Both the position numbers and the translations under genes were made by a program. A stretch of DNA of 64,000 bases, taken from assembly GCA_035576005.1 (NCBI GenBank), contig DATLXH010000128.1, positions 5,257-69,256 of the forward strand, written 5' to 3'. Shown in pieces: positions 9,724 through 54,385 of this stretch (the first letter of the stretch is position 1; every line of letters starts with the position of its first letter). The stretch is from Thermoanaerobaculia bacterium. Lineage in GTDB: Bacteria; Acidobacteriota; Thermoanaerobaculia; Gp7-AA8. Below the pieces are notes generated by a model. It had not been told where the DNA came from. It did not search any database and saw only the letters and a program-made list of their open reading frames with translations.

Positions 9724-9748
9724 CGTCGACTATCGGGTCAAGCGCGGC

Positions 9749-9926
9749 ACTAGTGGAGTGTATTCGATGAATTGGTACCACCTGGCTTGGTCTCGCCGCC
9801 GTGAGCTTCGTTGCGACTCCTCAGCATAGTCACCACTATTCCTGCGTCGCCGCGCCTCGCCCACGTCGCCGATCCCATCGCCATCTGGTACCAATTCATC
9901 AAATACACTCCACTCGCCGACGAATG
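9749..9926. mobile_element. ~178-bp MITE-like element with ~30-bp terminal inverted repeats (GGAGTGTATTYGATGAATTGGTACCA)
   Basis: Left TIR 9755-9780 and right TIR 9897-9922 are reverse complements (28/30). They lie in the convergent intergenic gap between ptrB and kynU. Confidence 0.5.
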
Positions 9927-9939
9927 GAGTCGGGGATTA

Positions 9940-11148
9940 TCACGTCACGATCACGTCGCGGGATGACTGGCGCATCCACCTTCGGTTGCGAAGCACGTCA
10001 TCGAGAACTCCGAACGCTATCTCGATTTCCTCATCGGTCGTATAAAAGTGCGGTGAGAAGCGGACTCCGGAGTTCGGTCGATAGTCGCAGACCACGTCCT
10101 CCGCATTGAGCTCAGCGGCAACCTCCTTCGCGTGAGGGACTGCGAAAGAGATAGAGCCTCCACGCTGGTTGGGCGAGCGTGGTGTCCGGATCTCGAATCC
10201 TCGCTCGTCGGCGAGTGCGATGATTCTCTCAGTCTGGCGGAGTGATTTGTCTCGAATTGCTTTCATCCCGCCGGAGGCTGCCTGAGCGACGATTTTAGGA
10301 CCCTCTCTGGCTGCGTAGAGTGCCGGGATGGGAGGTGTGCCGAGAGCGAAGCGTAGCGCGTCGTCGCGATAGCGCATGGGCGGGGGTTCAAAACCGAACG
10401 GATTCGCGTGCGCCATCCAGCCTGTAAAGCTGGGCTCCAGGCGTGGTCTCAACTCCGGATTGACATAGAGGAAGGCACCTCCCGGACCACCACAAAGCCA
10501 TTTGAGCACGCCTCCCACAGCAATGGGAGCGTCCCACGCCGCCACGTCGATATCCACGATTCCCGCGGACTGAAAAACGTCGAGGACGAGTGTGGCGCCA
10601 ACCTCGCGGCAACGCGTCGCGATGGGAGCGACATCGATCATGAAAGAGGACTCGAAGAGTACGTGGGAGATCGGAACGATCTGCGTGCGCTCGTCAATGG
10701 CTTCGAGGAGTTTATCGAGGTCGAACCCGAGGCCGCTTCCATCATGTGGAACGTTGACAATCTCGGCTCCGAGTCTCTGCGCGAGGCGATCGTAGATGTA
10801 CCGGACTGACGGAAATTCTCCCTCGACCATGACCACGCGGTTTCGCGGGCCGCTGTAGTCGAACGCTGAGAGCACGACCGCCTCCGCGGTGGTCACGTTC
10901 GGGAGCATGACGATCGACCCGGGAGCCGCGCCGATGAGCGGAGCGATGATGTCACCGATCTCAATCGACATCATCCACCATTGATCCCCCCACGCCCGTA
11001 CGCCGCGCGTGGCCCACATCTCGGCGTACTCAGCGAGCGCGTCGCGCGTTGCTTCAGGCATCGCTCCCAGCGAGTGGGAGACCAGATACTTGCACTGCTG
11101 AAGAATCGGGAACTGCGGTCTGAATCGAAGCAGCGGATCGGCTTCCAT
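9940..11148 (-). CDS. kynU: kynureninase
   Basis: Start MEADPLLRFRPQFP with an AAGGAG RBS 5 nt upstream (ATG at 11148). Class-V aminotransferase fold residues are conserved through to the C-terminus. Confidence 0.85.
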   Translation of the reverse strand: MEADPLLRFRPQFPILQQCKYLVSHSLGAMPEATRDALAEYAEMWATRGVRAWGDQWWMMSIEIGDIIAPLIGAAPGSIVMLPNVTTAEAVVLSAFDYSGPRNRVVMVEGEFPSVRYIYDRLAQRLGAEIVNVPHDGSGLGFDLDKLLEAIDERTQIVPISHVLFESSFMIDVAPIATRCREVGATLVLDVFQSAGIVDIDVAAWDAPIAVGGVLKWLCGGPGGAFLYVNPELRPRLEPSFTGWMAHANPFGFEPPPMRYRDDALRFALGTPPIPALYAAREGPKIVAQAASGGMKAIRDKSLRQTERIIALADERGFEIRTPRSPNQRGGSISFAVPHAKEVAAELNAEDVVCDYRPNSGVRFSPHFYTTDEEIEIAFGVLDDVLRNRRWMRQSSRDVIVT

Positions 11149-39485: not shown

Positions 39486-40811
39486 ATGACGACGAGTCCC
39501 ACCACACAGCCCGGCGGTTATGGAGTCGAGCTCAACGACAACCCTCGGATGGGTGCAGCTCCGCTCGAGAAAGTCTACGCATTCTGGCTCGCCGGAATGA
39601 GCTGCGACGGCTGCTCCATCGCTGTTACGGGCGCCAGCGATCCGCCAGTCGAAGATCTACTGTTGGGAAGGATTCCCGGACTGCCGCGGGTGATCCTGTA
39701 TCACCCCGTTCTCTCCGCCGAAGCCGGCGACGAGTTCATCGCGAACTTTGATCTCGCCGCCGAGGGAAAGCTCGATGCCCCGTACGTCATCATTCTCGAG
39801 GGCTCGGCCACTGATGATTCGCTGCTCAAAGGCGATGGTTACTGGGTCGGACTGGGAGCGCGCGACGTTGGCGGAACTGACGGAAAAAAAGTCATCTCGG
39901 TCATGGAATGGATCGATCGACTGGCTCCCGGCGCTGCAGCCATGATTGCCATCGGCACCTGTGCGACCTGGGGCGGAATTCCGTCAGCAGTAGGGAACCC
40001 TACCGGTGCCATGGGTCTGATGGATTACCTGGGGAAGGACTATGTCAGCGCCTTCGGCCTGCCGGTCATCAACATTCCTGGTTGTGCTCCAGTCGGCGAC
40101 AACTTCACCGAAGTCGTGGCCATGGTTCTTCAATTCCTGCAGGGAACCGGGCCTCTTCCGGAGTTCGATCAGCTCGGCCGCCCGGCCTGGCAGTTTCGCG
40201 ATACCGTACACAACCGCTGCGTTCGGGGTGGCTATTACGAAGAAGGGATCTTCGCCAAGGAGTACGGCGATCCTGAGTGCCTCGTCGAGGTCGGATGCTG
40301 GGGCCCTGTCGTGCAATGCAACATCGTCGAGCGCGGTGCCATCCGCCATCACGGCGGCTGCATGAATCAGGGAGGCATCTGCATCGGCTGCACGATGCCC
40401 GGATTCCCCGACAAGTTCACACCCTTTTACACCGCACCACCGGGATCGTTCTTTTCAGCCGCGACAGCGACTACAACCGGCAAGATCGTGCGTTTCCTGC
40501 GCAGCTTTACGAAAAGCTCAGGCAACCGTTCCGTTCTATGGGACAAGCAGAATTCGATGCCGAGTGGATGGGCCATGCAGGCCCGTCCTGAGGGCTACCT
40601 CGAACAGTTCGTTCATCACTTCTATCGCAAACGCCAACTGTCGAGCTCCCTCGAGCCAGGACGAACGATTCCGGAGACACAGTTTCGTGATGGGTACGAG
40701 GTTCCCAGGATGGCCGAGCAGAAAGAGGTCGGCCACGGGGACATGCCCGTGATCTCAGGCCAGGAGCGACGACGAGCGAAGCTCGCGCGTGACGCTGCCG
40801 GGCTCCCGTAG
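39486..40811 (+). CDS. [NiFe]-hydrogenase small subunit, no Tat signal (group 1h/5-like, HhyS-type) with long C-terminal extension
   Basis: CxxC...GTCATWGG, CPV, and distal cluster Cys pattern (CxxGC...C). No RRxF twin-arginine motif at the N-terminus. Confidence 0.9.
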   Translation: MTTSPTTQPGGYGVELNDNPRMGAAPLEKVYAFWLAGMSCDGCSIAVTGASDPPVEDLLLGRIPGLPRVILYHPVLSAEAGDEFIANFDLAAEGKLDAPYVIILEGSATDDSLLKGDGYWVGLGARDVGGTDGKKVISVMEWIDRLAPGAAAMIAIGTCATWGGIPSAVGNPTGAMGLMDYLGKDYVSAFGLPVINIPGCAPVGDNFTEVVAMVLQFLQGTGPLPEFDQLGRPAWQFRDTVHNRCVRGGYYEEGIFAKEYGDPECLVEVGCWGPVVQCNIVERGAIRHHGGCMNQGGICIGCTMPGFPDKFTPFYTAPPGSFFSAATATTTGKIVRFLRSFTKSSGNRSVLWDKQNSMPSGWAMQARPEGYLEQFVHHFYRKRQLSSSLEPGRTIPETQFRDGYEVPRMAEQKEVGHGDMPVISGQERRRAKLARDAAGLP

Positions 40812-42848: not shown

Positions 42849-43430
42849 ATGCGAATTCTCATCGCCGGCGTCGGCTATTCGAACCTGAGCGACATGTCGC
42901 TCGGTCCGCTGCTCATTGAGATCCTAACTCAGCGCGCATGGCCTGAGGGCGTGGAGATTGACGACCTCAGTTATGGTCCGGTCTTCATTTGTCACAGCCT
43001 CGGCGAGCGCCCCGCATATGACCGGATCGTTCTGATCGGCGCCGTGTCGCGGGAAGAGGCTCCTGGAACCATCCGGCGCTTTCGCTGGGCCCATGAGCTC
43101 CCCTCCACTGACGAGATTCAGGCCCGTGTCGTGGAGGCTGCCACGGGCGTCACCAGTCTGGAGAATCTGCTGGTGGTCTCCACATACTTCAAGAGGCTTC
43201 CTGCTGATGTCGTGGTGCTCGAAATCGAACCTTTCGTCGATACGTTCGGCGCTGCGCTCAGCGACGATCTGAACGCTCTTCTGCCAGCGTTCATCGAGGA
43301 GTTGACGCGAGTCTGGTCCAGCCCCGACCCGCTCCCTTTGCTCGAGACCTATCGATTCATCATCGCCAATCCCGCGGACAGGCCGACGGGTTGGATCATC
43401 CGCGAAGCAGACTGGGGAGGATCGAATTGA
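42849..43430 (+). CDS. hydrogenase maturation protease-family protein (HyaD/HupD-like, divergent)
   Basis: MRILIAGVGYSNLSD...GP N-terminus of the family, but it lacks the canonical DDG motif. Confidence 0.65.
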   Translation: MRILIAGVGYSNLSDMSLGPLLIEILTQRAWPEGVEIDDLSYGPVFICHSLGERPAYDRIVLIGAVSREEAPGTIRRFRWAHELPSTDEIQARVVEAATGVTSLENLLVVSTYFKRLPADVVVLEIEPFVDTFGAALSDDLNALLPAFIEELTRVWSSPDPLPLLETYRFIIANPADRPTGWIIREADWGGSN

Positions 43431-43456
43431 GAGTTTTTTGGGAACTCTCCATCGTT

Positions 43457-43690
43457 CGCGTGCTCCCCTCTCCCCGGCGGAGATCGTCTCAAAAGGCCAA
43501 GATGAAAAGCCGAACGGAGAACGCAGAACGAAGAATGAAGAATTTAGAAAGAAAAAAGCGAAAAAAGACTGAAAAAACTCGGAATCCCCCGCTTTGTTTT
43601 CTTCATTCTTCATTCTTCATTCTGCGTTCTGCGTTCGGTTTCTCAAATCTTACTTTTGAGACGATCCCCGCGGGGAGAGGGGAAACCAAA
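43457..43690. mobile_element. AT-rich ~230-bp inverted-repeat element inserted into a REP-like 23-bp palindrome
   Basis: Arms AGATCGTCTCAAAAGGCCAAGATGAAAAGCCGAACGGAGAACGCAGAACGAAGAATGAAGAAT ... ATTCTTCATTCTGCGTTCTGCGTTCGG..CTTTTGAGACGATC. Flanks are CCCCTCTCCCCGGCGG | CCCGCGGGGAGAGGGG. Confidence 0.5.
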
Positions 43691-43740
43691 ACCACTGAGG
43701 CGACTTCCTGTTTCGCAGGAATCCGCCTAGGATCACAGCC

Positions 43741-44514
43741 ATGAAAATCGCAATTGCCGGAAAGGGTGGATCGGGTAAGACCACGATCGGCGGAACGCTG
43801 GCGCGACTGCTCGCGCGTGGCGGCCTGTCTGACGTACTGGCCATCGACGCAGACTCCAATCCAAATCTCGCGCTCACGCTCGGTCTTTCGAGAGAAGCAT
43901 CACAGCAGCTCCGCCCGTTGACGCGCGACATTCTCAAACGGGTGACCGGCGAAGATGGAGAGCAGAGAACGGTGCTCGCAAAGACCCCCGCAGCGGTTGT
44001 GGATGAATACGGAGTGCAGACGCCCGATGGAGTCATGCTCCTGCTCATGGGACGCGTCGAGCACGCCGGCGCCGGCTGAATGTGCGGAGCCCACGCTGCC
44101 GTGCGCAGCCTACTGACTGAAATGATCGCAGAGAACGACCGTCCGACAATCGTGGACATCGAAGCGGGTCTCGAGCATCTGAGCCGGGGAACTGCACGCA
44201 GCGTCGACACGATGCTGGTGATCTTCGAGCCGTACTTCAAATCGATGGAGACGGGCGCACGCATGACGGCGCTGGCTCGGGAGCTGGGAATCCCCCGGGT
44301 CCTTGGAGTTGCCAATAAAGTGACCCCGGCAGATGAGAAAGACCTTGCCGCCTTCTGTCTTTCCCGGGACATGGAGCTGGCGGCGACAATTCCCCGTGAC
44401 GAAGTGATGGCCACGGCTGATCGAAACGGCTCCGGGCCACTGGACGTGAGTAGCAGCAGCCCCGCCATCGACGCGATCGGAAAGCTCGCGGAGCGCTTGA
44501 AAGCTGATGGCTGA
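43741..44514 (+). CDS. cooC: CooC-family (MinD/ParA-type) nickel-insertion ATPase interrupted by an in-frame TGA at codon 113 (first Cys position of the CxC Ni-binding motif). Selenocysteine candidate or pseudogene; the track splits it into 43741..44079 and 44080..44514.
   Basis: Deviant Walker A KGGSGKTT. Downstream DIEAGLEHLSRGT is the CooC hallmark. The sequence reads ...EHAGAG-TGA-ATG-TGC..., i.e. G-[U/*]-M-C. The second half has no RBS of its own. Confidence 0.6.
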
Positions 44515-44517
44515 CGG

Positions 44518-44997
44518 ATGAGGACACTCGTTGCAGGCTTCGGAAACATTCTTCTCGGCGACGACGGGTTCGGCGTCGAGGTGGTCCGACGCCTCGAGCG
44601 CGAAGGGAAGCTCCCTGAGAACACTGAGCTCATCGATGTAGGAATCGGTGGTTTCGATTTCGTTCTCCGCCTCATGGACGGATACGACCGGGTGGTTGTC
44701 GTCGATGCCGTGCGCCGCCGTGAAAGGCCCGGCACCCTCCATGTTTTTCGCCCTGCTCCGACGGACGTCGTCCTCGAGACAGGAGAACGTCTCGACCCGC
44801 ACTTTGCGGAACCGGCGCGAGCGATGATCATGGCCCGTCAGATGTCGTGCCTTCCTGACGACGTCACCGTGGTCGGATGCGAAGTACTGAGTTGCGATCT
44901 GGGCGTCGGCCTCAGCGAGCCCGTGGAAGCTGCAGTCCGGGAAGCGATGGACAGGGTCAAGTCTCTGACCCGCATTTTTCACGGAGCTTTGTCGTGA
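44518..44997 (+). CDS. [NiFe]-hydrogenase maturation endopeptidase (HupD/HoxW/HycI family); 3' end fused into a MITE
   Basis: GNILLGDDGFG (GNxxxxDDGxG) motif. The last ~9 codons are encoded by MITE-A sequence from 44969. Confidence 0.75.
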   Translation: MRTLVAGFGNILLGDDGFGVEVVRRLEREGKLPENTELIDVGIGGFDFVLRLMDGYDRVVVVDAVRRRERPGTLHVFRPAPTDVVLETGERLDPHFAEPARAMIMARQMSCLPDDVTVVGCEVLSCDLGVGLSEPVEAAVREAMDRVKSLTRIFHGALS

Positions 44998-45146
44998 GAC
45001 GGCGGAGAGTGGCTTGGATGCGAGGCGCACGGCGATTTTGCGACGAAGGCATAGTCGACACTATGTCGAGGAGCGAAATTGGCGTGCAACGAAGCAGACA
45101 GGCCGCTATCCGTCGTATCACGGCGAAGGTCTGTGAGAAATGCGGG
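44969..45146. mobile_element. MITE family A copy inserted at the 3' end of the hydrogenase protease gene
   Basis: CCCGCATTTTTCACGGAGCTTTGTCGTGAGACGGCGGAGAGTGGCTTGG ... GAAGGTCTGTGAGAAATGCGGG, followed by TTAATAA. Confidence 0.65.
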
Positions 45147-45165
45147 TTAATAACGGAGCACGCCC

Positions 45166-45972
45166 ATGCAATTTGAAGAGCTCGAAGAATTGATGACCCG
45201 CCTCGAGTCCACCACTGACAACAGCGAGCGACAGCAGATCTACGGGATCGTCGGTCCAATTCTCGATTTTCATCGCCAGGCCTTCGCTCGCGTAGTGGAG
45301 ATTCTCGAGGAGGAAGGGGCACGCCACCTGCTGGACCGCATCGTGCGCGATCCGTTGCTGGAGAGCCTGCTGCGTGGTTACGAGCTCATAGAACTGGGAT
45401 TGGATCAGCGTGTTCTGGCAGCGCTGGAGATCGCCCGCCCGATGCTCAAGATGCACGGAGGAGATGTCTCGCTCGTAAAGATGCGAGGGAAGGTCGCCGA
45501 GCTCGAGCTCACTGGATCGTGCCAGGGCTGCGCGGCCTCCATGACCACTCTGCGCAACCTCATCGAGAAAAATCTCTACCAGCAGGTGCCGGAGCTCCGA
45601 GGAATCGAGGTGGCAGGTCTGACCGCGGCAGGCGCGAGCTCCCAGACCTGGCTTCCGCTCGTGCATCTGTACGAGGTGCGGGACGGGGAATGGCTCAAGG
45701 TTCAGCTCTTCGACGACCAGCTTCTGGTCTGCTCGATGGACGAACATCCTTTTGTATTCGAGAATCGTTGTCCCGCGGGAGGCGAGCCGCTCGACACAGC
45801 GGCTTTCGGGTACCTCTCCATCGGTTGCGTCGAGCACGGCCATCAGTTCGATCTTCGTACCGGCCTGAGCGCCGTCAATCCCGCGTTGCGCCTGCGGATC
45901 TACCCTGCCATCATCGATGATGCCGTCGTCAGGATCGCGTATGAGCCAAACAACGTTCCAGTTGCAGGATGA
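45166..45972 (+). CDS. NifU-like Fe-S assembly domain fused to a Rieske-like [2Fe-2S] domain (hydrogenase-associated)
   Basis: GGDVSLVKMRGKVAELELTGSCQGCAASMTTL (NifU C-terminal-type CxxC) and a C-terminal CPAGG...CVEHGH Rieske-like ligand pattern. Confidence 0.65.
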   Translation: MQFEELEELMTRLESTTDNSERQQIYGIVGPILDFHRQAFARVVEILEEEGARHLLDRIVRDPLLESLLRGYELIELGLDQRVLAALEIARPMLKMHGGDVSLVKMRGKVAELELTGSCQGCAASMTTLRNLIEKNLYQQVPELRGIEVAGLTAAGASSQTWLPLVHLYEVRDGEWLKVQLFDDQLLVCSMDEHPFVFENRCPAGGEPLDTAAFGYLSIGCVEHGHQFDLRTGLSAVNPALRLRIYPAIIDDAVVRIAYEPNNVPVAG

Positions 45973-46294
45973 CATCCTCCAGATGCTGTACTGGATGCGG
46001 GGCGAGCATCTGGGCGACGACGTGTCGAGCGAGCAGCTGAATCAGTTCCTGAAGGTTGACGAGCCACTGCTCGCCGCTTCGATCGAACGACTGGTCGATC
46101 GCAGTCTCCTCGAGAGAGTTGGAGATGCCAGACTACGGCTGACAGCCGTCGGCATCGAAGAGGGGAAGAAACGGTTCCTCGAAGAGTTCTCCACCTATCT
46201 CGGAAAGGAGTCGCACATCGCGTGCAGCGATCCCGAATGCGACTGCAGCAGCGCCGACTGGGTTGGAGCGTGCCGCTCGAGCACGTCGGTTTAG
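45941..46294 (+). CDS. small hydrogenase-associated protein with C-terminal Cys cluster (CSDPECDC...C)
   Basis: ATG overlapping the upstream stop (ATGA). Predicted helical N-terminus, and a Cys-rich tail. Confidence 0.45.
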   Translation: MSQTTFQLQDDILQMLYWMRGEHLGDDVSSEQLNQFLKVDEPLLAASIERLVDRSLLERVGDARLRLTAVGIEEGKKRFLEEFSTYLGKESHIACSDPECDCSSADWVGACRSSTSV

Positions 46295-46359
46295 CAGTCT
46301 AGACACATGGGAAGCTGAAGTTTGAAACCAGCAGGGCTGCAGGCCCGGGAATCGTCGTA

Positions 46360-46557
46360 GCCCCAGCCTTACGGGCTTGTTGCCTAACTTCACAGAGGAG
46401 CGTTCGTCATCCTGAGGAGCGCTTTTGCGACGAAGGATCTCAAAATGCGACGCTGTGAAAATCAATGAGTTACGTATTTTGAGATCCTTCGCTTTCGCTC
46501 AGGATGACGAATCGCTGGTGAGAGTGGAGTTAGGCAACACGCCCGTAAGGCTGGGGC
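46360..46557. mobile_element. ~200-bp lower-GC palindromic element (MITE-like) with ~85-bp arms
   Basis: GCCCCAGCCTTACGGGCTTGTTGCCTAACTTCAC...CGTCATCCTGAGGAGCGC...GAAGGATCTCAAAAT || ATTTTGAGATCCTTCGCTTTCGCTCAGGATGACGA...GTTAGGCAACACGCCCGTAAGGCTGGGGC. Confidence 0.5.
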
Positions 46558-46799
46558 GTTAGTTGACCTAGAGCACGGTGAGCCCCGCAAGGGGCGGCAT
46601 CGATGCCGCCGCTTCGCGGCTCCGTGGAATTCTCGTACAGTCACACCCCACCCTCACGGGTGGGGCTAAACGATATCGCCGCTTCGCGGCTGGGAGGACG
46701 CACCAGTTCATCACCTCTTCACCAGCCGTTCCCGGCTGTTCTCCCGCTACAGGGATGACACGCTCGCGGGTTGATAGAAGGGTTGTGAGAAAATGCCGC

Positions 46800-47648
46800 T
46801 TAACTCGACGGCGCGGCGAAGAGGGATGGATCGAGCGGCACGTTGAACTTGACGTCCTCATACCGGGTCTCGGACGTCTTCTTTCCAATCTTTCCCTTCG
46901 CATCGGCTTGGTATCCGGTGCGAAGCATCGGAAAGCGGATCCCGTCGATCACAGTTTCTTCGGAGTACTCCGTGTAGCTGTACTTACCCGCCTCGTACTC
47001 CAGGTGATTGGCTACCAGCCGACCGTCGCCGGCAAACATGTATGTCCAGGTGTGGAGTCCGCCCGCGTCGCCGGCTCCCTTGTCATAGGTCACGCGAACT
47101 TTGTCGACTTTGGTGCCATCGGCCAACGTCTCGCTGCCTGCGCTGGCGAGGTTCGCCCCACGATCGGTGAGCTTGAAGGGCATCGAAACGACATAGTGCG
47201 ATCCGAAGGTGGCATTCCTGGCGCCGTTCTTCTCGCTGACACCCGTTGCCACCACCCCATCCGCGACCCTCCATGCTTCCCATCCATGGTTGATCAGCAC
47301 GATCTTCCTGCCATCGTCTTCCCACGTGATCCGCATCTTCGGTCCTGGCCGCAGCACGTACTGATGGGTCTGCACCCGGGTGCTTTCCACGGTGCCATCC
47401 TCGCGGAACTTCGTCGTGGTCTTACGAAAAGATAGAGAGTGTTTTGAGCTCCACTCCTTCCATCCGCCGGCGTAGTCAATCCCACGCTGGACAACCTGTC
47501 CTGCTCCATCCTTCGAAAGACGCTCGATCGGGGAGGCCTCCGCCGGTTCACTGGCAGGAGGTTGGGAAACTGTTTCGACAGGGGCCTTCTGGCAGGCCGC
47601 CAGTACGAGAAGGAGCGCGGCTGCTGAGAGTCGTTTCATCGTCTTCAA
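46800..47648 (-). CDS. hypothetical lipoprotein (opposite strand, inside the hydrogenase cluster)
   Basis: Lipobox LLLVLAAC. Length 282 aa. Confidence 0.55.
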   Translation of the reverse strand: MKTMKRLSAAALLLVLAACQKAPVETVSQPPASEPAEASPIERLSKDGAGQVVQRGIDYAGGWKEWSSKHSLSFRKTTTKFREDGTVESTRVQTHQYVLRPGPKMRITWEDDGRKIVLINHGWEAWRVADGVVATGVSEKNGARNATFGSHYVVSMPFKLTDRGANLASAGSETLADGTKVDKVRVTYDKGAGDAGGLHTWTYMFAGDGRLVANHLEYEAGKYSYTEYSEETVIDGIRFPMLRTGYQADAKGKIGKKTSETRYEDVKFNVPLDPSLFAAPSS

Positions 47649-47753
47649 ATGATACCGTAAACCTCCCGGCCACCGACCTCAGCCGCTTCGAAAAGTCGAA
47701 GCTGAGTTGACATCAAGACCCCCTTCGGAAGAAATTGTGGCAGGAGAACATCA

Positions 47754-48041
47754 ATGGATAGCATGACTCTCTGGCAAATCTCCTGGGCAATCGGAGCATT
47801 GGTTGTCGTCATCGTTGCCGTGCTTCTCCTGCTCATCCTCGCAGCTGCCCGACGCATCGATAACCGGGCCAAAGAAATCTGGCAGGCGGGAAAGGAGATC
47901 GCTTCCAATACGGTCTCCATCTGGATGTTGCAGAAAACCAATGTCGTCGCCGGTGAGATCCTCGGTGTTGCGCAGGGGATTGCTGCCGGCGCCGGGGCAA
48001 TAGACGCCAAGCTGGCAGGCCTGGCCGGGAGCAAGAAGTAA
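47754..48041 (+). CDS. small single-pass membrane protein, paralog 1 of a tandem array of four
   Basis: N-terminal TM helix plus an amphipathic Ala/Ile/Gly-rich C-terminal region. Stop and start overlap the next paralog (TAATG). Confidence 0.5.
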   Translation: MDSMTLWQISWAIGALVVVIVAVLLLLILAAARRIDNRAKEIWQAGKEIASNTVSIWMLQKTNVVAGEILGVAQGIAAGAGAIDAKLAGLAGSKK

Positions 48042-48331
48042 TGCGACCGGTTCTGCTGGCCACCCTCATCTATCTCGGGATTCTGGTGGCCGTGCTCGCT
48101 GTGGGTCTGATCATGATCGCCTGGCGGCTATGGGCCACAGGCACGGCACTGGCCGCGATTCGCGACGAGCTGGCTTCCGTTAGGGACGACACTTCACCGC
48201 TGGCGTCCCACATCGGGGCGATCAATGGCGCGCTCTCGCAGTTAGGGGGCGGTCTGGCATCGGTACTGGCACGGCTCGGACGCGCCAACAGCGCGCTGGG
48301 CCGGATCATTGGGAAATCCAAGGTAGCCTGA
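48041..48331 (+). CDS. small single-pass membrane protein, paralog 2
   Basis: Same architecture. TSPLASHIGAINGALSQLGGGL aligns with TTPLTSAIPGVAGNLTSIGEGL of paralog 4. Confidence 0.5.
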   Translation: MRPVLLATLIYLGILVAVLAVGLIMIAWRLWATGTALAAIRDELASVRDDTSPLASHIGAINGALSQLGGGLASVLARLGRANSALGRIIGKSKVA

Positions 48332-48338
48332 GGACGAG

Positions 48339-48635
48339 ATGCCCCTATCCGTCCACATCATCTGGTGGATCACCCTGGCCCTGGCGCTGGGGATCACGGT
48401 CCTTGCCACGGCGTACCTCATTCTCGTCGTTCGGGAGTGTGGACAGATTATGGAACTTGCACGACGAACCATTCCATCGGCACAGCTGATTGCCCGAAAC
48501 ACGAAGGCCATCGCCAGTCTCACGGCGGTCCTCGACCTTGCACCGACACTGCTCAAAGTAGCGGGGAACATCGACCGCGAGTCGGAGACGATTGCTTCCA
48601 CCATCGAATCCGTCGCGCCACGAGCGTCCGCATGA
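48339..48635 (+). CDS. small single-pass membrane protein, paralog 3
   Basis: Same architecture. ATGA overlap with paralog 4. Confidence 0.5.
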   Translation: MPLSVHIIWWITLALALGITVLATAYLILVVRECGQIMELARRTIPSAQLIARNTKAIASLTAVLDLAPTLLKVAGNIDRESETIASTIESVAPRASA

Positions 48636-48925
48636 TTCTCTGGACCGTTCTCAGCTGCGTCCTTTTTCTAACGCTCCTGGCGTTCCTTACCTGGGCGCTC
48701 AACAAAATCCTTCATGCCCTTCAGGCCATCCGCAGCAGCCTCGAGAAAATTGCCATGGGCGTCAAAGCCATCAGCGTCGAGACCACGCCACTCACCAGCG
48801 CGATTCCGGGAGTAGCCGGCAACCTCACCAGCATTGGAGAAGGCCTGGTGATCGTCGAGAAACATCTCACTGGCAGCGCCGCCAGTCTTCCGGGTGCTGC
48901 TCGTGCACTCGGGCTCCTTCCGTGA
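48632..48925 (+). CDS. small single-pass membrane protein, paralog 4
   Basis: Same architecture. Its stop overlaps the hypF GTG start. Confidence 0.5.
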   Translation: MILWTVLSCVLFLTLLAFLTWALNKILHALQAIRSSLEKIAMGVKAISVETTPLTSAIPGVAGNLTSIGEGLVIVEKHLTGSAASLPGAARALGLLP

Positions 48926-51315
48926 CCTCGGGCGGCCACGCTCTCGTCGCCGAACAGACTTCGGCAAGGAGCGGCCTGCGTGTCCGCGGAGTCGTGCAGG
49001 GAGTCGGTTTCCGTCCTTTTGTCTACCGGCTGGCGCGCCAGTATGGGATGTCCGGATTCGTTCGCAACGATTCGGGGGGCGTCTGGATAGAAATCGAAGG
49101 CAGGCACGCGATACTCGCCGAGTTTCCTGATCTGCTCCGTCGCCAGGCTCCCGCGGCCGCTGTCATTCAAGCGATCGAAAGCTTTCCACTTCCCCTGAAG
49201 TTCGACGGCAATTTTTCGGTCATTGAGAGTGCAGCCACGCCCGGGAATCGCGCTCGCATTCCCTGCGATCTCGCTACCTGCAGCTACTGCCTCCAGGAGC
49301 TCTTCGACCCGATGAATCGACGGTATCTCTACCCCTTCATTAACTGCACTGCCTGCGGTCCCCGCTTTTCGATTGTTCGCGATACGCCGTACGACCGAGC
49401 TCGGACGACCATGGACGCCTTTTCCCTATGCGCTGCCTGCCTGGATGAATACCAGAGCCCGGCTGATCGTCGATTCCATGCGGAACCAAACGCCTGCGCC
49501 GTTTGCGGTCCCAGGCTTCAGTTCGTTTCTTCCAGGCCGGAAGAAAATACGCCGCTCTCCGACTCAACAAACAGGGAAGCGCTTGCGCGCGCCGTTGCCT
49601 TGCTCCAGAAGGGCTTGATCGTGGCCATCAAAGGTCTGGGAGGGTTTCATCTCGCCGTTGACGCCACCAACGACGTTGCTGTGCGGAGACTCCGCGATCG
49701 TAAGCAAAGACCTCACAAACCATTCGCCGTGATGGCGCGCGACGCAATCATGGCCTCTACGATCGCTGAGGTTGGTGAAAGTGAAGCCAGGCTACTGACG
49801 TCCGTGCAACGTCCGATCGTCCTGCTCCCAGCGAGAAAGTCGGCTCTTCCGAACTCCATAGCGCCGGCCAGCGACGAGATCGGAGTCATGCTTCCCTACA
49901 CGCCGCTTCATCATCTGTTGCTCGATGCCCTGCCGCTTCTGGTCATGACCAGCGGAAATCGTGCAGATGAGCCGATCGTCATCGACAACGACGTAGCGAT
50001 CGAGCAGCTCTCCGGAATCGCCGACGCCTTCCTCCTGCATGATCGAGAGATTCATGCACGAGTGGACGATTCCGTCACTCGGGTCGCGAACGGGACTCGC
50101 AGAATGCTTCGACGCTCCCGTGGGTTTGTGCCCGATCCGATCGAGCTTCAGCTTCCGGTTCGCCACGCAGCCGAGAGGCAGGGGCAACCATTCCCTTCCG
50201 ACAACGAGGACAACGTACCTTCAGCAGGCCCGACCCCTTCGATTCTGGCGGTGGGCGCGGAGCTCAAAAACACGCTATGCATCACGCGTGGCAGCGAGGC
50301 TTTCCTGTCCCAGCACATCGGAGACCTGGAGTCGCCGGAGTCTCTCGAGTTCTTCAAGGAAACCACCACCCGCCTTTCCCGCCTTCTATCCGTGACGCCC
50401 GCCGTCGTCGCCCACGACCTTCATCCCGATTACGCATCGACACGATGGGCACTGGCCAGCGGACTGCGACGAATCCCGGTGCAGCATCATCACGCTCACA
50501 TCGCCTCCTGTCTGGCTGAGAATGGGAGGAGCGAGCGCGTGATCGGCGTGGCCTTCGATGGCACCGGCTGCGGTCCGGCGGGCGAGTTATGGGGCGGGGA
50601 GTTCCTTCTCGCTGACGCCAGAAATTCAGAGCGGGTCGGCCACCTCCGCCCCCTAGGACTGATTGGCGGAACGGCCGCGATTCGAGAGCCGTGGCGCCTC
50701 GCAGTCGCAGCACTCGATGATGCCGGGGAGGAAACGGACATCCTGAGAGACATCGATCCGTACCGACGTGAAATGGTGTTGTCCATGAGCCGTAAAGGAA
50801 TTCGAACTGTCCGATCGACGAGCGCTGGCCGCTGGTTCGACGCCGTTGCCGCTCTTTGCGCAGTGCGTGAAGAGATTACCTACGAAGCGCAGGCAGCGAT
50901 CGAGCTCGAGGCACTTGCGTCACGTGATGACGTCGAGCCATACAGTTTCACGCTCACAGAAGATGCAGTCTTCGAGGTCGACCTCCGTCCTGCCATTCGC
51001 GAAATCGTCGGCGACCTCCGGGCGGGACTCGCTACAGCCATCATCTCGTCGCGTTTTCATCAGACTATGGCGAGCTTGATTTCCGCTGGGGCAGTCGCTG
51101 CGCGCAGCAGAGGAGGTCCGGCCATCATCGCGCTCTCTGGAGGCTGCTTTCAAAATCGGCTTCTCAGTGAACGGGCACGGACGCTTCTCGAAAGAGACGG
51201 CTTCGAGGTTCTCCAGCATCGCCACGTTCCCGCCAACGATGGCGGGATTGCACTCGGTCAGGCGTTCGTGGCGGCGCACTTGCTGGCTTCCGAGACAGGG
51301 TACGATGCGAGTTAG
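48922..51315 (+). CDS. hypF: [NiFe]-hydrogenase maturation carbamoyltransferase HypF
   Basis: Acylphosphatase domain (VRGVVQGVGFRPFVYRLA), two CxxC-x18-CxxC zinc fingers, and YrdC-like and Kae1/YgjD-like C-terminal domains. Confidence 0.9.
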   Translation: MTSGGHALVAEQTSARSGLRVRGVVQGVGFRPFVYRLARQYGMSGFVRNDSGGVWIEIEGRHAILAEFPDLLRRQAPAAAVIQAIESFPLPLKFDGNFSVIESAATPGNRARIPCDLATCSYCLQELFDPMNRRYLYPFINCTACGPRFSIVRDTPYDRARTTMDAFSLCAACLDEYQSPADRRFHAEPNACAVCGPRLQFVSSRPEENTPLSDSTNREALARAVALLQKGLIVAIKGLGGFHLAVDATNDVAVRRLRDRKQRPHKPFAVMARDAIMASTIAEVGESEARLLTSVQRPIVLLPARKSALPNSIAPASDEIGVMLPYTPLHHLLLDALPLLVMTSGNRADEPIVIDNDVAIEQLSGIADAFLLHDREIHARVDDSVTRVANGTRRMLRRSRGFVPDPIELQLPVRHAAERQGQPFPSDNEDNVPSAGPTPSILAVGAELKNTLCITRGSEAFLSQHIGDLESPESLEFFKETTTRLSRLLSVTPAVVAHDLHPDYASTRWALASGLRRIPVQHHHAHIASCLAENGRSERVIGVAFDGTGCGPAGELWGGEFLLADARNSERVGHLRPLGLIGGTAAIREPWRLAVAALDDAGEETDILRDIDPYRREMVLSMSRKGIRTVRSTSAGRWFDAVAALCAVREEITYEAQAAIELEALASRDDVEPYSFTLTEDAVFEVDLRPAIREIVGDLRAGLATAIISSRFHQTMASLISAGAVAARSRGGPAIIALSGGCFQNRLLSERARTLLERDGFEVLQHRHVPANDGGIALGQAFVAAHLLASETGYDAS

Positions 51316-51332: not shown

Positions 51333-51623
51333 ATGTGTCTCGGTATACCAGGTGAGATTCTCGAGTTACGAGTCGAGAAAGGATTGCCATTCGGCAAAGT
51401 GAAGTTCGGCGGCATCACCCGGTCCGTCTGCCTGGCCTACGTGCCTGAGGCCTCCGTAGGCGAGTTCGTGGTCGTTCACGTCGGCTTTGCCATCTCCATC
51501 ATCGACGCCGAGGAGGCAGCGCAGGCATACAAAATCCTCGAAGAGATCGGTCAGATCGGAGAGCTCACCGCGGACCTTCCACCCGACATCCTCGCCAACC
51601 TTCCTTCCAGCAAAGTCCAATGA
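51333..51623 (+). CDS. hypC: hydrogenase assembly chaperone HypC/HupF
   Basis: N-terminal MCLGIPGEI signature. Confidence 0.9.
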
Positions 51624-52726
51624 AATACCTCGACGAATACCGCGATAGTGCGGTGGCTGCCGCCCTGGTCCGTGAGATCAAAACCGTGGCCACGCGCCCG
51701 TGGGTACTCATGGAAGTCTGCGGCGGACAGACGCATTCGATCGTCCGCTACGGCATCGATCGCATGCTTCCCACCTCGGTCGAGCTCGTTCACGGACCAG
51801 GCTGTCCCGTCTGCGTCACGTCCCTCGAGACAATCGATCGCGCTCATGCAATCGCCAGCCGTCCCGACGTCATTTTCACGTCCTTCGGCGACATGCTCCG
51901 AGTTCCCGGATCGCGTGGTGATCTGCTGGCGCTCAAGAGTCGTGGAGCTGACGTCCGCGTGGTCTACTCTCCGCTGGACGCCGTCCGAATTGCGCGCGAC
52001 AACCCTACCCGGCAGGTCGTGTTCTTCGGCATTGGATTCGAAACCACGGCGCCAGCAAATGCCATGGCGGTTTTCAGCGCCAAGAAGGAAGGGCTGAAGA
52101 ATTTCTCGATGCTCGTTTCTCACGTGCTGGTGCCACCGGCCATGGCATCGATCCTCCAGGCTCCGGGCAATCGCGTGGAAGGCTTCCTCGGGCCCGGTCA
52201 TGTCTGCTCGATCATGGGGACCAGAGAGTACGAGTCGTTGTCGGCCCGGTTCAAAGTACCGATCGTGATCACTGGTTTCGAGCCGATCGATCTGCTCGAG
52301 GGCATCCTCATGACGGTAAGACAGCTGGAAAGTGGACAGGCAACCGTCGAGAATCAGTACGCGCGCGCAGTGAGTGCGGAAGGGAATCTCCCCGCACAAA
52401 AAATCCTGTTTGAGGTCTTCGAGATCACCGATAGAAAGTGGCGCGGTGTCGGCTCCATCCCCAAGTCCGGATACAAGCTCCGCTACGAATACCGGGAGCA
52501 CGACGCTGCGAAACTTTTCGAGGTCGAGGATATCGAGACGGCCGAGCCGGAGGTCTGCATCAGCGGACTCATTCTTCGCGGCCTCAAAAAGCCGCACGAC
52601 TGTCCGGCCTTCGGGAAAGAGTGCCGGCCCGAGCATCCCATCGGAGCGACGATGGTTTCGGCTGAAGGCTCCTGCGCCGCCTACCTCCAGTATGGACGGT
52701 ATCCAGAAGCACACGAGTCGGTATGA
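51620..52726 (+). CDS. hypD: hydrogenase maturation factor HypD
   Basis: [13 protein letters not shown] and FEPID-type conserved motifs. ATGA overlap with hypC. Confidence 0.9.
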
Positions 52727-53331
52727 CTGGTACCCATGAGCGCGTCGACCTTCGTGATGCCATCCTTCGGAAAGCAGGAGAAAGCGCGGAGCTGAAGACA
52801 CGGTTCTTCGAGGAGAACGCGGATCTTCTCATCCGTTGCGTGGAACGGCTCGCCGAATCGTTTCGCTCCGGAGGTCGGCTGCTTGTCATGGGCAACGGAG
52901 GATCGGCTTGTGACGCGCAGCATGTGGCCATCGAGTTTCAGCATCCCATCATCGAGAAGCGCAAACCGCTGCCTGCCATGGCCCTCACTGTCGACACCGC
53001 CGCACTCACCGCCATCGGAAATGACGGCGACTTCGCGCGCGTGTTCGTCGAACAACTGGACATGCTGGGCCGCACCGGCGATGCAATTCTCGGGATCTCT
53101 TCCTCAGGTGCATCGGCAAACGTGAATCGTGCGTTGAAGCGAGGACGCGAGATGGGTCTCGTCACCATCGGCTTCTCGGGACGGGACGGCGGCCGGATGC
53201 CCGAGCTATGCGACTTCTGTTTCACTGTCCCCAGCTGGTCGATCCACCGCATCCAGGAAGTGCACACGACGCTGCTGCATCTTCTGTGGGACCTTGTCCA
53301 CGTCTCTATGGGAGAGGACGATGTCCTCTGA
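52723..53331 (+). CDS. SIS-domain protein (GmhA-like sugar-phosphate isomerase fold) embedded in the hyp operon
   Basis: [15 protein letters not shown] and [16 protein letters not shown] motifs. Coupled by overlap to hypD and hypE. Confidence 0.8.
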
Positions 53332-54385
53332 TTCCGGTAGCTCCACTCCCTTCTCCGACTGTCCACTCCCTTTCCGCGACACGTCCCAGATCCTGCTCGG
53401 ACACGGAAGCGGCGGGAAGCTCACCGGAGAACTGATCGAGAAGCTTCTGTTGCCAGCATTCAACAATGACGTTCTGTCTCAGCTCGACGATCAGGCGATT
53501 CTAACCATCGGCGACTCACGCATCGCCTTCACGACCGACAGCTATGTCGTCACCCCGATCTTTTTCCGGGGCGGCGACATCGGCTCACTGGCGGTGAACG
53601 GCACAATCAATGACCTGGCCATGGGTGGGGCGGTGCCAAAGTTCCTCTCTCTCGCGCTGATTCTCGAAGAAGGTCTTGCCATGGGGGATCTCGAGCGCGT
53701 CGTGGCCTCAATACGCGATGCTTCGCGAGCTGCCGGTGTGGCGATTGTTACGGGCGACACGAAAGTCGTGGGACGCGGCAGCGGTGACAAAATCTTCATC
53801 AATACCGCCGGGATCGGCATCGTCCCCGAGGGCGTTACTCTTTCGTCGAAGCAGGTCAGGCCGGGTGATGACATCCTGCTCTCCGGTCCGATCGGCGATC
53901 ACGGAATTGCGATCCTTTCTCAACGCGAAGGGCTCGAGTTCGACGGAGAGATTGCAAGCGACACTGCTCCGCTTCACACGCTCGTGGCCGCTATGCTCAA
54001 AGCGTCGTCGTCGATCCATGCGATGCGTGATCCCACACGCGGCGGTCTGGCAGCGACACTCGTGGAGATCGCGACACGGCAACACCTCGGCATGGAAATC
54101 GACGAACCATCCATCCCTGTGCGAGAAGTCGTCCGCGGTGCGTGCGAGATTCTCGGACTCGACCCGATGTTCGTGGCGAACGAAGGGAAGCTCGTCGCCT
54201 TCGTACCACCGGAGAGCACCGATGACGTCCTGCGCGCCATGCGCGAACATCCTCTGGGTAGAGACGCCGTGCGGATCGGTGGCGTTATCAAAGATTCGTC
54301 CGGGCGCGTTCGCCTCCGCACCCCGATTGGTGGCTATCGGCTACTCGACCTTCCCTTTGGGGAGCTTCTCCCACGAATCTGCTGA
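53321..54385 (+). CDS. hypE: hydrogenase maturation factor HypE
   Basis: PurM-like fold and the C-terminal PRIC motif. Confidence 0.9.
   Translation: MSSDSGSSTPFSDCPLPFRDTSQILLGHGSGGKLTGELIEKLLLPAFNNDVLSQLDDQAILTIGDSRIAFTTDSYVVTPIFFRGGDIGSLAVNGTINDLAMGGAVPKFLSLALILEEGLAMGDLERVVASIRDASRAAGVAIVTGDTKVVGRGSGDKIFINTAGIGIVPEGVTLSSKQVRPGDDILLSGPIGDHGIAILSQREGLEFDGEIASDTAPLHTLVAAMLKASSSIHAMRDPTRGGLAATLVEIATRQHLGMEIDEPSIPVREVVRGACEILGLDPMFVANEGKLVAFVPPESTDDVLRAMREHPLGRDAVRIGGVIKDSSGRVRLRTPIGGYRLLDLPFGELLPRIC

Follow-up and report, generated by a model that had tools for sequence, protein, structure and literature searches.

The array and its locus

The window analysed here, a 64-kb stretch (64,000 nucleotides) of a Thermoanaerobaculia contig, contains a [NiFe]-hydrogenase gene cluster in which four short open reading frames, here called A to D, lie directly ahead of hypF. 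A preliminary description of the sequence had placed four paralogous single-pass membrane proteins at 47754-48925, and all four ORFs are present there, encoding proteins of 95–98 aa; reading frames, BLASTP and hydropathy agree with that account. The features of the cluster, in order of position, are as follows.

39486..40811, + strand: [NiFe]-hydrogenase small subunit (SSU), 441 aa (Pfam; alignment to 5AA5 HofK)
40548-40808, + strand: C-terminal extension of the small subunit, ~residues 355-441, ~87 aa
40945..42804, + strand: [NiFe]-hydrogenase large subunit (LSU), 619 aa, group 1l-like as judged from identities and a neighbour-joining (NJ) tree
42849..46294, + strand: rest of the structural/accessory operon, including a HycI-like 193-aa ORF
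43741-44514, + strand: CooC/CbiA-like NTPase, with an in-frame TGA at 44077-44079
44518-44997, + strand: HycI protease
45166-45972, + strand: NifU-Rieske protein
45917-46294, + strand: Cys-rich ORF, 125 aa
46800..47648, - strand: 282-aa gene with a lipoprotein-type signal peptide, no Pfam match
47742..47746, + strand: Shine–Dalgarno (SD) sequence AGGAG, 7 nt 5' of the start of gene A, read from the sequence
47754..48041, + strand: gene A, 95 aa, type-I HylTM-family subunit
48041..48331, + strand: gene B, 96 aa, type-II subunit
48339..48635, + strand: gene C, 98 aa, type-I subunit
48632..48925, + strand: gene D, 97 aa, type-II subunit
48922..51315, + strand: hypF, carbamoyltransferase maturation factor (Pfam Acylphosphatase, zf-HYPF, Sua5, HypF_C, HypF_C_2)
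51333-51623, + strand: hypC, named from the Pfam label of its homologue in locus L001
51620-52726, + strand: hypD, named likewise
52723-53331, + strand: SIS-domain ORF, named likewise
53294-54385, + strand: hypE-like ORF, a name inferred only from its C-terminal PRIC motif

The start and stop codons of the array had been described as overlapping. This is correct for the junctions A/B (TAATG, 1 nt), C/D (ATGA, 4 nt) and D/hypF (GTGA, 4 nt, with the hypF GTG at 48922), but only three of the four junctions overlap because B and C are separated by a gap of 7 nt. Gene C has its own SD sequence, GAGGA (48330-48334), which overlaps the stop codon of B. The GTGA overlap, read directly from the sequence, bears out the earlier proposal that the last ORF is coupled to hypF, and hypF is thus translationally coupled to gene D. 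Within related arrays, overlaps of 4 or 1 nt occur at 86 of ~235 junctions. The AGGAG at 47742..47746 marks the beginning of a tmABCD-hypFCD(E) transcription unit, and a promoter scan of 46200-49000, which includes the region 5' of A, returned no sigma-70-like promoter. The array genes have a GC3 of 0.68-0.75.

The 282-aa gene on the opposite strand separates the structural operon from the array, and an equivalent gene occupies the same place in the related locus L004; the gene is outside the system but defines the operon boundary. Further upstream, the CooC-like neighbour gene is probably a selenoprotein gene, whose product would be 257 aa long if the TGA is read through, and no SECIS-type model was found with Rfam at its in-frame TGA. 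The CooC-like genes of MAGs include both a type with TGA and a type with Cys.

The placement of the array ahead of hypF, which had been taken as fixed within a hydrogenase maturation locus, turns out to be confined to the small clade of the window (the window, L004 and L006). In most lineages the array separates the structural genes or sits immediately upstream of them: 26 whole loci have the layout SSU-TM5-LSU, 15 loci have TM4-SSU-LSU, and the layout SSU-LSU...TM4-hypF occurs in the window and L004. The array is movable within the cluster and yet stays inside it. With D coupled to hypF, and with the array at the head of the hypFCD operon in the window and L004, a role in maturation or assembly can be envisaged, in which the array would act with HypF, HypC and HypD at the membrane during cofactor insertion and remain outside the mature enzyme. 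Such a role is very unlikely, however, as the 41 other whole loci keep the array beside the structural genes and away from hypF, the sister clade (L001, L008) has it upstream of the small subunit, and hyp genes are present in all [NiFe]-hydrogenase systems, also in those that have no such proteins.

A family of single-pass helical proteins

Each of the four proteins has a single strongly hydrophobic 19-residue window near its N-terminus (Kyte-Doolittle mean 2.5-3.4), at residues ~1-31, and the hydropathy scan revealed no second hydrophobic segment in A, B, C or D. Among 303 family members a second segment is seen in only 3%, and the positive charge is greater after the transmembrane (TM) helix in 90%, with a mean K+R content of 0.40 ahead of the helix and 2.41 in the 15 residues past it. 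The predicted topology is therefore that of a single-pass protein with a short N-terminus outside and a cytoplasmic C-terminal part. C-terminal to the TM helix there follow ~65 residues of heptad-patterned helix, and Ala, Gly and Ser together make up 30-44% of the residues outside the TM window. The hydrophobic period of A–D is 3.43-3.53 residues, a pattern equalled by 0-1 of 1000 shuffled sequences; for gene B (period 3.50) and gene C (3.43) none of the 1000 shuffles reached it.

Modelling gives the same picture of a long, unbroken helix. AlphaFold2 predicts gene D, from an alignment of 146 sequences, as one continuous helix spanning residues 2-92 (pLDDT 94), and gene A, from its single sequence, as one helix spanning residues 3-91 (pLDDT 80). 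A Foldseek comparison of the D model with the PDB returned no matches, as expected for a lone long helix. Profile searches of the PDB matched only designed coiled-coil bundles and barrels, chemoreceptor coiled coils and viral fusion coiled coils. These matches were rejected as homologues and are read as an analogy of heptad pattern and composition.

The four genes are related to one another in pairs, as pairwise BLASTP links B with D (E 6.5e-7) and A with C (E 4.5e-5). Gene A carries the type-I motif IW..GK.IA.NT..I..L..TN, with 11 residues invariant across phyla in alignment A6, and gene B the type-II motif (D/E)T.PL....N..L...GGL, which rests on alignment A7. The motif earlier given as common to B and D is correct save for one miscounted spacer, which should read I....G and not I...G. 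A near-invariant Thr lies at equal depth across all subunit types. Profile-profile comparison relates the B and D groups with 99% probability and type I to type II with 93.7%, and all HylTM genes fall into a single superfamily that comprises two helix types.

Iterative HMM searches started independently from each of the four proteins all arrived at the same 309 ORFs, every one of them in an array within a hydrogenase locus. Of 84 sources, 74 contain homologous arrays, which were found, with the exception of L075, in every related hydrogenase locus on a sufficient length of contig, so that the association with one class of hydrogenase suggested at the outset stands. Length is conserved across phyla, with a median of 97 aa, and the 26 close homologues of gene D are all 96-97 aa long. 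Against three orthologous arrays pN is much below pS. Of the 11 comparisons that could be computed (A against L001 could not), 10 give a dN/dS of ~0.09-0.3 and the remaining one, B against L001, gives 0.48; these values are rough since dS is saturated, exceeding 1 in most pairs. Absence of the array from related loci together with a dN/dS of ~1 had been named as the outcome that would refute the preliminary description, and these figures are the opposite of it. The array genes are real, conserved and under purifying selection.

It follows that there is next to no chance of the ORFs being spurious products of GC-rich DNA. Their small size and want of annotation are all that might suggest it; set against this are the conserved length, the low pN relative to pS, the residues invariant across phyla and the SD sites, and the reading is refuted by the family searches, the matches to the HMMs of five-gene arrays given below and pN/pS.

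Scans of A–D with Pfam and NCBIfam gave no family above threshold, in agreement with the earlier statement that no named domain is recognised. DUF948 (PF06103), offered then as a lead, also has a TM helix at its N-terminus and a helical region after it, but the resemblance stays below threshold: the scores are 16.9 bits for D and 12.9 bits for C, against a gathering threshold of 37.2, and DUF948 was rejected as the family. We know of no link between DUF948 and hydrogenases. That A–D are generic DUF948-like or stress-related membrane coiled coils with no specific tie to hydrogenase is highly improbable. Of 77 family members, 8 do show weak DUF948 matches, the best at E 1.5e-5 (E 0.007 for D), yet all lie under the Pfam gathering score, the 309 family ORFs are without exception located in hydrogenase loci, and searches that start from the TM proteins and work outward also end in hydrogenase loci.

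The hydrogenase and the HylTM proteins

The enzyme encoded beside the array had been ascribed to group 1h (Hhy). Group 1l is distinguished by a four-Cys proximal cluster, a small-subunit C-terminal extension of ~100 aa relative to 1h, and a large subunit with less than ~40% identity to 1h. In the window the small subunit has the proximal-cluster motif GMSCDGCS, aligned with GLGCDGDS in 5AA5 HofK, and the C-x-G-C motif is found in 57 of 59 small subunits of related loci. Its C-terminus is extended, the protein being 441 aa long against 351 aa for HofK, with an alignment that stops at residue 354; the ~87-aa extension contains a conserved PSGW...FFYxKxQ...PGR. No twin-arginine (Tat) signal was detected in the small subunit. 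The large subunit is 41% identical to that of the 1h structure 5AA5 and 58-64% identical to the large subunits of SSU-5TM-LSU loci. An NJ tree of large subunits, built without bootstrap and without the HydDB reference set, puts the branch of the window clade between an Actinomycetota clade, which lies beneath it, and the five-gene radiation above. The sole 1h-type enzyme seen (L041) combines a 360-aa small subunit bearing CDGD with a 598-aa large subunit, and it lacks TM genes of its own. Group 1h was thus rejected for the window enzyme, which has CDGC and not CDGD, a 441-aa small subunit and TM genes in its locus; on sequence it is classed as group 1l-like. Enzymes of this class are thought to scavenge H2 at high affinity. 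In the soils of Antarctica and other deserts, group 1l-type hydrogenases have been reported as the dominant H2 scavengers, and reports also describe them as common in the sea.

Arrays of this kind are not new, having been described in 2020/2021 and modelled in 2026 (bioRxiv 10.1101/2020.08.06.239558; PMC13554262). HylTM1-5 are the TM proteins of the group 1l [NiFe]-hydrogenases of Hymenobacter roseosalivarius (Ortiz et al., bioRxiv 10.1101/2020.08.06.239558), where their ORFs lie between SMB94678 and SMB94698, and the layout of small subunit, five TM genes (HylTM1-5) and large subunit is the published hallmark of group 1l. Homology to HylTM was measured on canonical SSU-5TM-LSU arrays, with the Bacteroidota isolates L045 and L084 as proxies for H. 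roseosalivarius. HMMs for TM1 to TM5 were built from 34 five-gene arrays only, 33 of them between the small and large subunits plus the downstream array of L082, with the window excluded. Gene A matches TM2 best (E 1.2e-29; TM1 at E 7.6e-25), B matches TM5 (E 3.5e-25), C matches TM4 (E 1.9e-16) and D matches TM3 (E 9.4e-18). The same one-to-one assignment is obtained in all 18 true four-gene arrays, four of 22 apparent ones having been set aside as truncated five-gene arrays. The matched five-gene arrays include those of the Bacteroidota isolates Geojedonia litorea and Maribacter sp., and a profile search with Bacteroidota TM3 gave no named Hymenobacter protein among the best 120 of 1149 relatives.

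In common with HylTM1-5, the proteins of the window are single-pass, ~90-105 aa long and of low mutual identity, and their genes accompany those of a cytosolic hydrogenase whose proximal cluster is of the four-Cys kind and whose small subunit is extended. The window array differs in having four genes and not five, with one gene where five-gene arrays have the type-I pair TM1 and TM2, and an HMM search of the entire 64-kb window found no fifth family member. Its gene order, by orthology, is TM2-TM5-TM4-TM3. Whereas HylTM1-5 lie between the structural genes, the window array is 5 kb downstream of the large-subunit gene, in its own operon and coupled to hypF.

A further difference concerns cysteine. 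The second TM gene from the small-subunit side carries an H-x3-CPGCPxC motif in 20 of 33 five-gene arrays, and this tri-Cys gene is probably the published 'HylTM4' if the numbering starts from the HylL side. Unlike TM2, gene A has no such C-terminal motif and ends in ...AKLAGLAGSKK. Cys is absent from the A-type gene in all 16 four-gene arrays examined, and no conserved His or Cys column was found in four-gene arrays. In one Anaerolineae MAG the tri-Cys tail reads C-P-G-Sec.

Taken on sequence, A–D would represent a four-gene, relocated variant of the described HylTM proteins, and it is the four-gene, Cys-free, relocated form that is the variant here. Several Acidobacteriota and Chloroflexota lineages use the four-gene Cys-free version throughout, and the tri-Cys tail is therefore not essential to the core function.

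Predicted role of the array

It is likely that A–D together constitute a four-subunit membrane stalk of the HylTM type, serving the cytoplasmic group 1l-like [NiFe]-hydrogenase. A membrane scaffold or tether had been suggested in the preliminary description, and the same role was already proposed in the literature, as a prediction, for the homologous HylTM1-5; AlphaFold modelling portrays the latter as tube-like scaffolds next to HylS's C-terminal extension (PMC13554262). As candidates for linking the cytoplasmic group 1l-type enzyme to the respiratory chain, the HylTM proteins, in this predicted role, stand alone.

We infer the assembly of the stalk, its docking on the enzyme and its electron route as follows. 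Each subunit would cross the membrane once, through its TM helix, leaving a short N-terminus outside and ~65 residues in the cytoplasm, the latter forming an uninterrupted heptad helix of ~90-100 Å. The cytoplasmic helices could not stand alone and would therefore line up in register, side by side, to form a parallel hetero-oligomeric coiled coil or tube of two type-I (A, C) and two type-II (B, D) subunits, whose equal production the start/stop overlaps may help. The cytoplasmic end of the stalk would dock the core formed by the small and large subunits, the most plausible point of contact being the small subunit's conserved C-terminal extension. Docking would keep the distal Fe-S cluster close to the membrane, which would allow electrons from H2 to reach quinone. 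As the window array has no conserved Cys or His, it would be a structural anchor or conduit and not a cofactor-bearing electron carrier. For a structural subunit it is unusual to be cotranscribed with hypF and not with the structural genes, which counts against the stalk.

Membrane subunits that link [NiFe]-hydrogenases to the quinone pool are also known as the cytochrome b anchors (HyaC/HoxZ type) of group 1 uptake hydrogenases, which are polytopic, bind haem and serve periplasmic, Tat-exported enzymes. A–D, in contrast, have one TM helix each and no conserved His or Cys, and belong with a cytoplasmic enzyme. An anchor of the cytochrome b type was rejected for A–D, which are not polytopic and do not have the haem-ligating His.

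A parallel in concept is the HucM stalk of the group 2a hydrogenase Huc of Mycobacterium smegmatis, which work by Grinter and colleagues in 2023 is said to have presented as a quinone conduit. In both cases a high-affinity hydrogenase in the cytosol would be connected with the membrane, and with quinone, by a long helical scaffold. No sequence similarity of A–D to HucM was detected, and HucM is a single protein that forms a homo-oligomeric tube for another hydrogenase group, whereas arrays of the A–D type encode four or five different integral single-pass subunits.

By analogy with HucM in Huc, the helices could form an alpha-helical barrel with a hydrophobic lumen that carries (mena)quinone from the bilayer to the distal Fe-S cluster. 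This overlaps with the stalk but adds a transport role, and it is tentative and on balance unlikely. With no cofactor ligands in the window array, electrons would need another route across ~90 Å. The family profile matches designed open alpha-helical barrels with Ala/Gly/Ser-rich heptads (sc-apCC-6 at E 1e-13, and also the CC-Hex and CC-Hept types), and the 2026 paper speaks of 'tube-like structures' and raises direct transfer to the quinone pool as a possibility for HylTM (PMC13554262). However, a bundle of four helices is normally closed and has no lumen, the PDB matches stem from heptad composition and not from homology, and the monomer models are silent on a lumen.

It is doubtful, and decidedly speculative, that the four-gene Cys-free array is at once a minimal, possibly ancestral HylTM stalk and a heteromeric coiled-coil tube carrying quinone between the bilayer and a hydrogenase ~90 Å away, convergent with the HucM of Huc. 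If it were so, five-gene arrays would have come later, by duplication of a type-I gene and gain of a redox-active CPGCPxC tail. For the stalk itself, the continuous heptad helices and the near-invariant Thr layer provide concrete residues, in a minimal four-gene system, for study.

The window cluster also resembles those of group 1m [NiFe]-hydrogenases, which encode two small single-TM proteins of 82-92 aa (Ray et al. 2022, PMC9561532): both have adjacent small- and large-subunit genes, short single-TM ORFs elsewhere in the cluster and a CooC-type NTPase. Group 1m has been reported only in Actinobacteriota, with extra genes for TPR, BirA and DUF1059 proteins (PMC9561532). The Actinomycetota loci found here (L047, L062, L065, L078 and L082), which are candidates for group 1m, encode 84-92-aa members of the HylTM superfamily, with 4-5 family members in each against the two TM proteins reported.

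The tandem array upstream of hypF

The array consists of four small ORFs (tmABCD), each predicted to encode a protein with one transmembrane (TM) helix.

47754–48041, same strand as B–D: gene A, ORF of 95 aa
48041–48331, same strand as A, C and D: gene B, ORF of 96 aa
48339–48635, same strand as A, B and D: gene C, ORF of 98 aa
48632–48925, same strand as A–C: gene D, ORF of 97 aa

An AGGAG sequence is found 7 nt 5' of the start of gene A. The preliminary description had start and stop codons overlapping throughout the array, which holds for three of the four junctions, namely A/B (common TAATG), C/D (common ATGA) and D/hypF (common GTGA, hypF starting at the GTG at 48922), but not for B and C, which are separated by a 7-nt gap with a GAGGA Shine-Dalgarno sequence that overlaps the stop codon of B. 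Hydrophobicity bears out the proposed single N-terminal TM helix, as each protein has one strongly hydrophobic segment at its N-terminus, with no second such segment in any of the four, and Ala, Gly and Ser make up 30–44% of the remainder. Pairwise BLASTP confirms the suspected paralogy of B and D (E 6.5e-7) and also relates A to C (E 4.5e-5). In agreement with the reported absence of a named domain, scans of A–D against Pfam and NCBIfam returned no model past threshold.

The ORFs are genuine genes. Gene D has 26 homologues with 57–100% identity, all of 96–97 aa, and its exact sequence is on record from a Thermoanaerobaculia MAG. Comparison of A–D with the orthologous arrays of three related MAGs gives a pN of 0.14–0.33 against a pS of 0.49–0.77. 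Purifying selection, as opposed to a dN/dS of about 1, is apparent from ratios of ~0.09–0.3 in 10 of the 11 computable comparisons and 0.48 in the eleventh (B against the related locus L001), with 0.07–0.12 for the hydrogenase large subunit, all of them rough because dS is saturated; A against L001 was not computable and is left out of the eleven.

The host hydrogenase and its relatives

The enzyme associated with the array is encoded by two structural genes.

39486–40811: [NiFe]-hydrogenase small subunit (SSU), 441 aa
40945–42804: [NiFe]-hydrogenase large subunit (LSU)

The nearest solved structure for both subunits is 5AA5, the group 1h enzyme of Cupriavidus necator, and group 1h/Hhy was the class first assigned. 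Identity of the LSU to 5AA5 is no more than 41%, the SSU reads GMSCDGCS where 5AA5 has GLGCDGDS, and ~87 residues follow the last aligned position (441 aa versus 351 aa), features that speak against this assignment. Group 1l was distinguished from 1h by a proximal cluster with four Cys ligands and by ~100 additional residues at the C-terminus (Ortiz et al., bioRxiv 10.1101/2020.08.06.239558, Supplementary Note 1), and a group 1m, with adjacent subunit genes and two 82–92-aa single-TM proteins, has been split off in Actinobacteriota (Ray et al., PMC9561532). The window enzyme is a 1l-like hydrogenase, not 1h; it is termed 1l-like rather than strictly 1l because, in a simple NJ tree, its clade lies between the Actinomycetota clade that fits this 1m description and the radiation with five-gene arrays. 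The N-terminus of the SSU has no twin-arginine motif and the enzyme is therefore taken to be cytoplasmic. The sole 1h-type enzyme encountered (L041, with CDGD in its SSU and an LSU of 598 aa) lacks TM genes of its own.

Directly 3' of the LSU lies a 193-aa ORF (42849–43430, +) without a Pfam match in the window, whose position is kept in nearly all related loci and whose L001 homologue gives a weak HycI score; it is additional to the regular HycI protease at 44518–44997 and may represent another endopeptidase-like protein of divergent sequence.

An LSU alignment scanned against 185,579 species genomes returned 80 loci with LSUs 58–85% identical, from Acidobacteriota, Chloroflexota, Bacteroidota, Gemmatimonadota, Actinomycetota, Planctomycetota, Verrucomicrobiota and Armatimonadota, together with a Luteimonas; several are MAGs of the Mackay Glacier study, which defined group 1l. 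All ORFs were called in the related loci, and iterative HMM searches run separately from each of the four seeds (A, B, C, D) retrieved an identical set of 309 ORFs (median 97 aa) in 74 of 84 sources, every one in a tandem array within the hydrogenase locus, so that the array is conserved in related hydrogenase loci. Nine of the ten remaining sources are contigs ending short of the expected array site, and the tenth (L075) has frameshifts. In a further locus, L085, the SSU gene is called as two overlapping ORFs (9307–10637, 294 + 149 aa) on a long contig, for which a frameshift, misassembly or recoding could account.

Among whole arrays, 26 loci have five TM genes between SSU and LSU, the published hallmark of group 1l (Ortiz et al., bioRxiv 10.1101/2020.08.06.239558), and 15, mostly Acidobacteriota with some Chloroflexota, have four TM genes followed by SSU and LSU. 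The order SSU-LSU...four TM genes-hypF is shared by the window and L004, L006 being truncated at its contig end, and in Actinomycetota the TM genes, four or five in number, are placed divergently or downstream. Contigs found in reverse, through the TM proteins alone, show the same picture, including a Maribacter isolate (SSU-91-108-96-96-91-LSU) and a soil MAG (94-98-97-97-SSU-LSU). Five Actinomycetota loci (L047, L062, L065, L078 and L082) have adjacent SSU and LSU genes and 4–5 HylTM-superfamily genes of 84–92 aa, divergently upstream or ~4–5 kb downstream. They fit the published description of group 1m, yet carry 4–5 TM genes as opposed to the two reported (PMC9561532); should they belong to 1m, the TM proteins of that group are homologous to HylTM and exceed the published number.

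In the window and L004 the structural operon is parted from a second unit, tmABCD-hypF-hypC-hypD, by an opposite-strand gene.

46800–47648, minus strand: 282-aa ORF between the two hydrogenase operons

Its product has a lipoprotein-type signal peptide (MKTMKRLSAAALLLVLAAC) and no Pfam match, and L004 has a homologue at the same site. The array had been thought to hold a fixed position within a maturation locus, but in the sister clade (L001, L008) these four TM genes lie upstream of the SSU. Their adjacency to hypF therefore reflects a local rearrangement, and cannot serve as evidence of a role in maturation. The gap separating the structural operon from the opposite-strand gene holds an Acido-Lenti-1 RNA motif (Rfam RF01687; 46646–46691, +; E 1.6e-7, 47.1 bits with the gathering score at 37). 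A conserved 116–125-aa ORF 3' of the NifU-Rieske gene (45917–46294, +; L004 6370–6720) has a Cys-rich C-terminal tail, CSDPECDCS...C, and no Pfam match.

Helix types, topology and a predicted stalk

HMMs were built from five-gene arrays only, their genes being numbered TM1–TM5 in transcription order from the SSU.

Matches of the window proteins to the TM HMMs (E values)
A: best TM2, 1.2e-29; also TM1, 7.6e-25
B: best TM5, 3.5e-25; also TM3, 7.6e-11
C: best TM4, 1.9e-16; also TM1, 5.3e-14; TM2, 2.6e-13
D: best TM3, 9.4e-18; also TM5, 1.4e-13; TM4, 1.3e-05

The assignment is kept in 18 of 18 true four-gene arrays. Two helix types are evident, type I (A, C, TM1, TM2, TM4; IW..GK.IA.NT..I..L..TN) and type II (B, D, TM3, TM5; G.RAIE.ET.PL....N..L...GL), with a Thr nearly invariant at equal depth in all. 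Profile-profile comparison relates the B and D groups with 99% probability (E 3e-18), and types I and II, aligned in register, with 93.7% (E 1.8e-7).

TM2 has the C-terminal motif H-x3-CPGCPxC in 20 of 33 five-gene arrays (including L045 8767–9084 and L068 8793–9110), the carriers being Bacteroidota, Gemmatimonadota, part of Chloroflexota and Luteimonas. Neither the other 13 nor any four-gene array has this tail, which is thus optional within the family; four-gene arrays, that of the window included, have no conserved Cys or His. It matches the "tri-cysteine motif" assigned to HylTM4 (Ortiz et al., bioRxiv 10.1101/2020.08.06.239558), from which, and from accession order, the published HylTM numbering probably runs from the HylL side. 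A–D are a HylTM-kind system and, in comparison with the five HylTM proteins of group 1l, form a four-gene, Cys-free and relocated variant on a 1l-like enzyme.

Among 303 family members, mean K+R rises from 0.40 before the TM helix to 2.41 in the 15 residues after it, positive charge is greater after the helix in 90%, and a further hydrophobic stretch occurs in just 3%. Applied to these charges, the positive-inside rule predicts a cytoplasmic C-terminal part, which would share the compartment of the Tat-less enzyme. AlphaFold2 models D as a single continuous helix (residues 2–92, pLDDT 94, 146-sequence alignment) and A likewise (residues 3–91, pLDDT 80, single sequence). The cytoplasmic parts have a hydrophobic period of 3.43–3.53 residues, reached by 0–1 of 1000 shuffles; the family profile matches only designed coiled-coil bundles or barrels and natural coiled coils among PDB sequences, and a Foldseek structure search gave no matches.

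Since an amphipathic helix of 90–100 Å is unable to exist alone, the simplest reading of A–D would be a parallel hetero-oligomeric coiled-coil stalk, which may be rooted in the membrane via four TM helices, with coupled translation perhaps supplying the proteins in equal amounts. The SSU extension, with the blocks PSGW...FFYxKxQ...PGR conserved across all three kinds of locus (four-gene, five-gene, Actinomycetota), would be the obvious docking partner; docking through the HylS C-terminal extension has been proposed (bioRxiv 10.1101/2020.08.06.239558; PMC13554262). The original guess of a scaffold or tether agrees with this current HylTM hypothesis as a predicted role, and every step of the mechanism beyond the single pass, the inside C-terminus and the heptad helix is likewise a prediction.

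Putative selenocysteine sites

A CooC/CbiA-like P-loop NTPase is encoded in the window by a single reading frame that a TGA interrupts, so that it is called as two ORFs.

43741–44514: CooC/CbiA-like gene, ORFs 43741–44079 (112 aa) and 44080–44514 (144 aa), with TGA at 44077–44079

The TGA falls at the first Cys of a G-x-G-C-x-C-x-x-H motif; the aligned codon is TGA in 33 of 33 related loci, from at least five phyla, and TGC or TGT, for that same Cys, in 22 others. A hairpin of 5–8 bp lies 15–18 nt 3' of the TGA (window 44092–44112, core 44095–44109), its 5-bp core being perfect in 27 of 33 TGA genes versus 3 of 22 Cys genes. Both sides have changed in five of eight pairs, and the covariation score is 0.295 versus 0.144 in shuffles (reached by 0 of 500), with slid controls at ≤0.149. 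TGA and hairpin together carry the sequence signature of a selenocysteine site, and the gene probably encodes a nickel-insertion factor with selenocysteine, which gene callers break into two ORFs. Among the papers searched, no report of a Sec-containing CooC was found.

A second candidate site is found in an Anaerolineae MAG (L010 4288–4584), where the tri-Cys subunit of a five-gene array ends in ...HASGCPG-TGA-PWCALS*. The TGA (4561–4563) corresponds exactly to the second Cys of CPGCPxC and is followed after ~12 nt by the hairpin CGCUGU-CGUGA-ACAGCG; selenocysteine here, if true, would argue for a redox-active or metal-binding tail.
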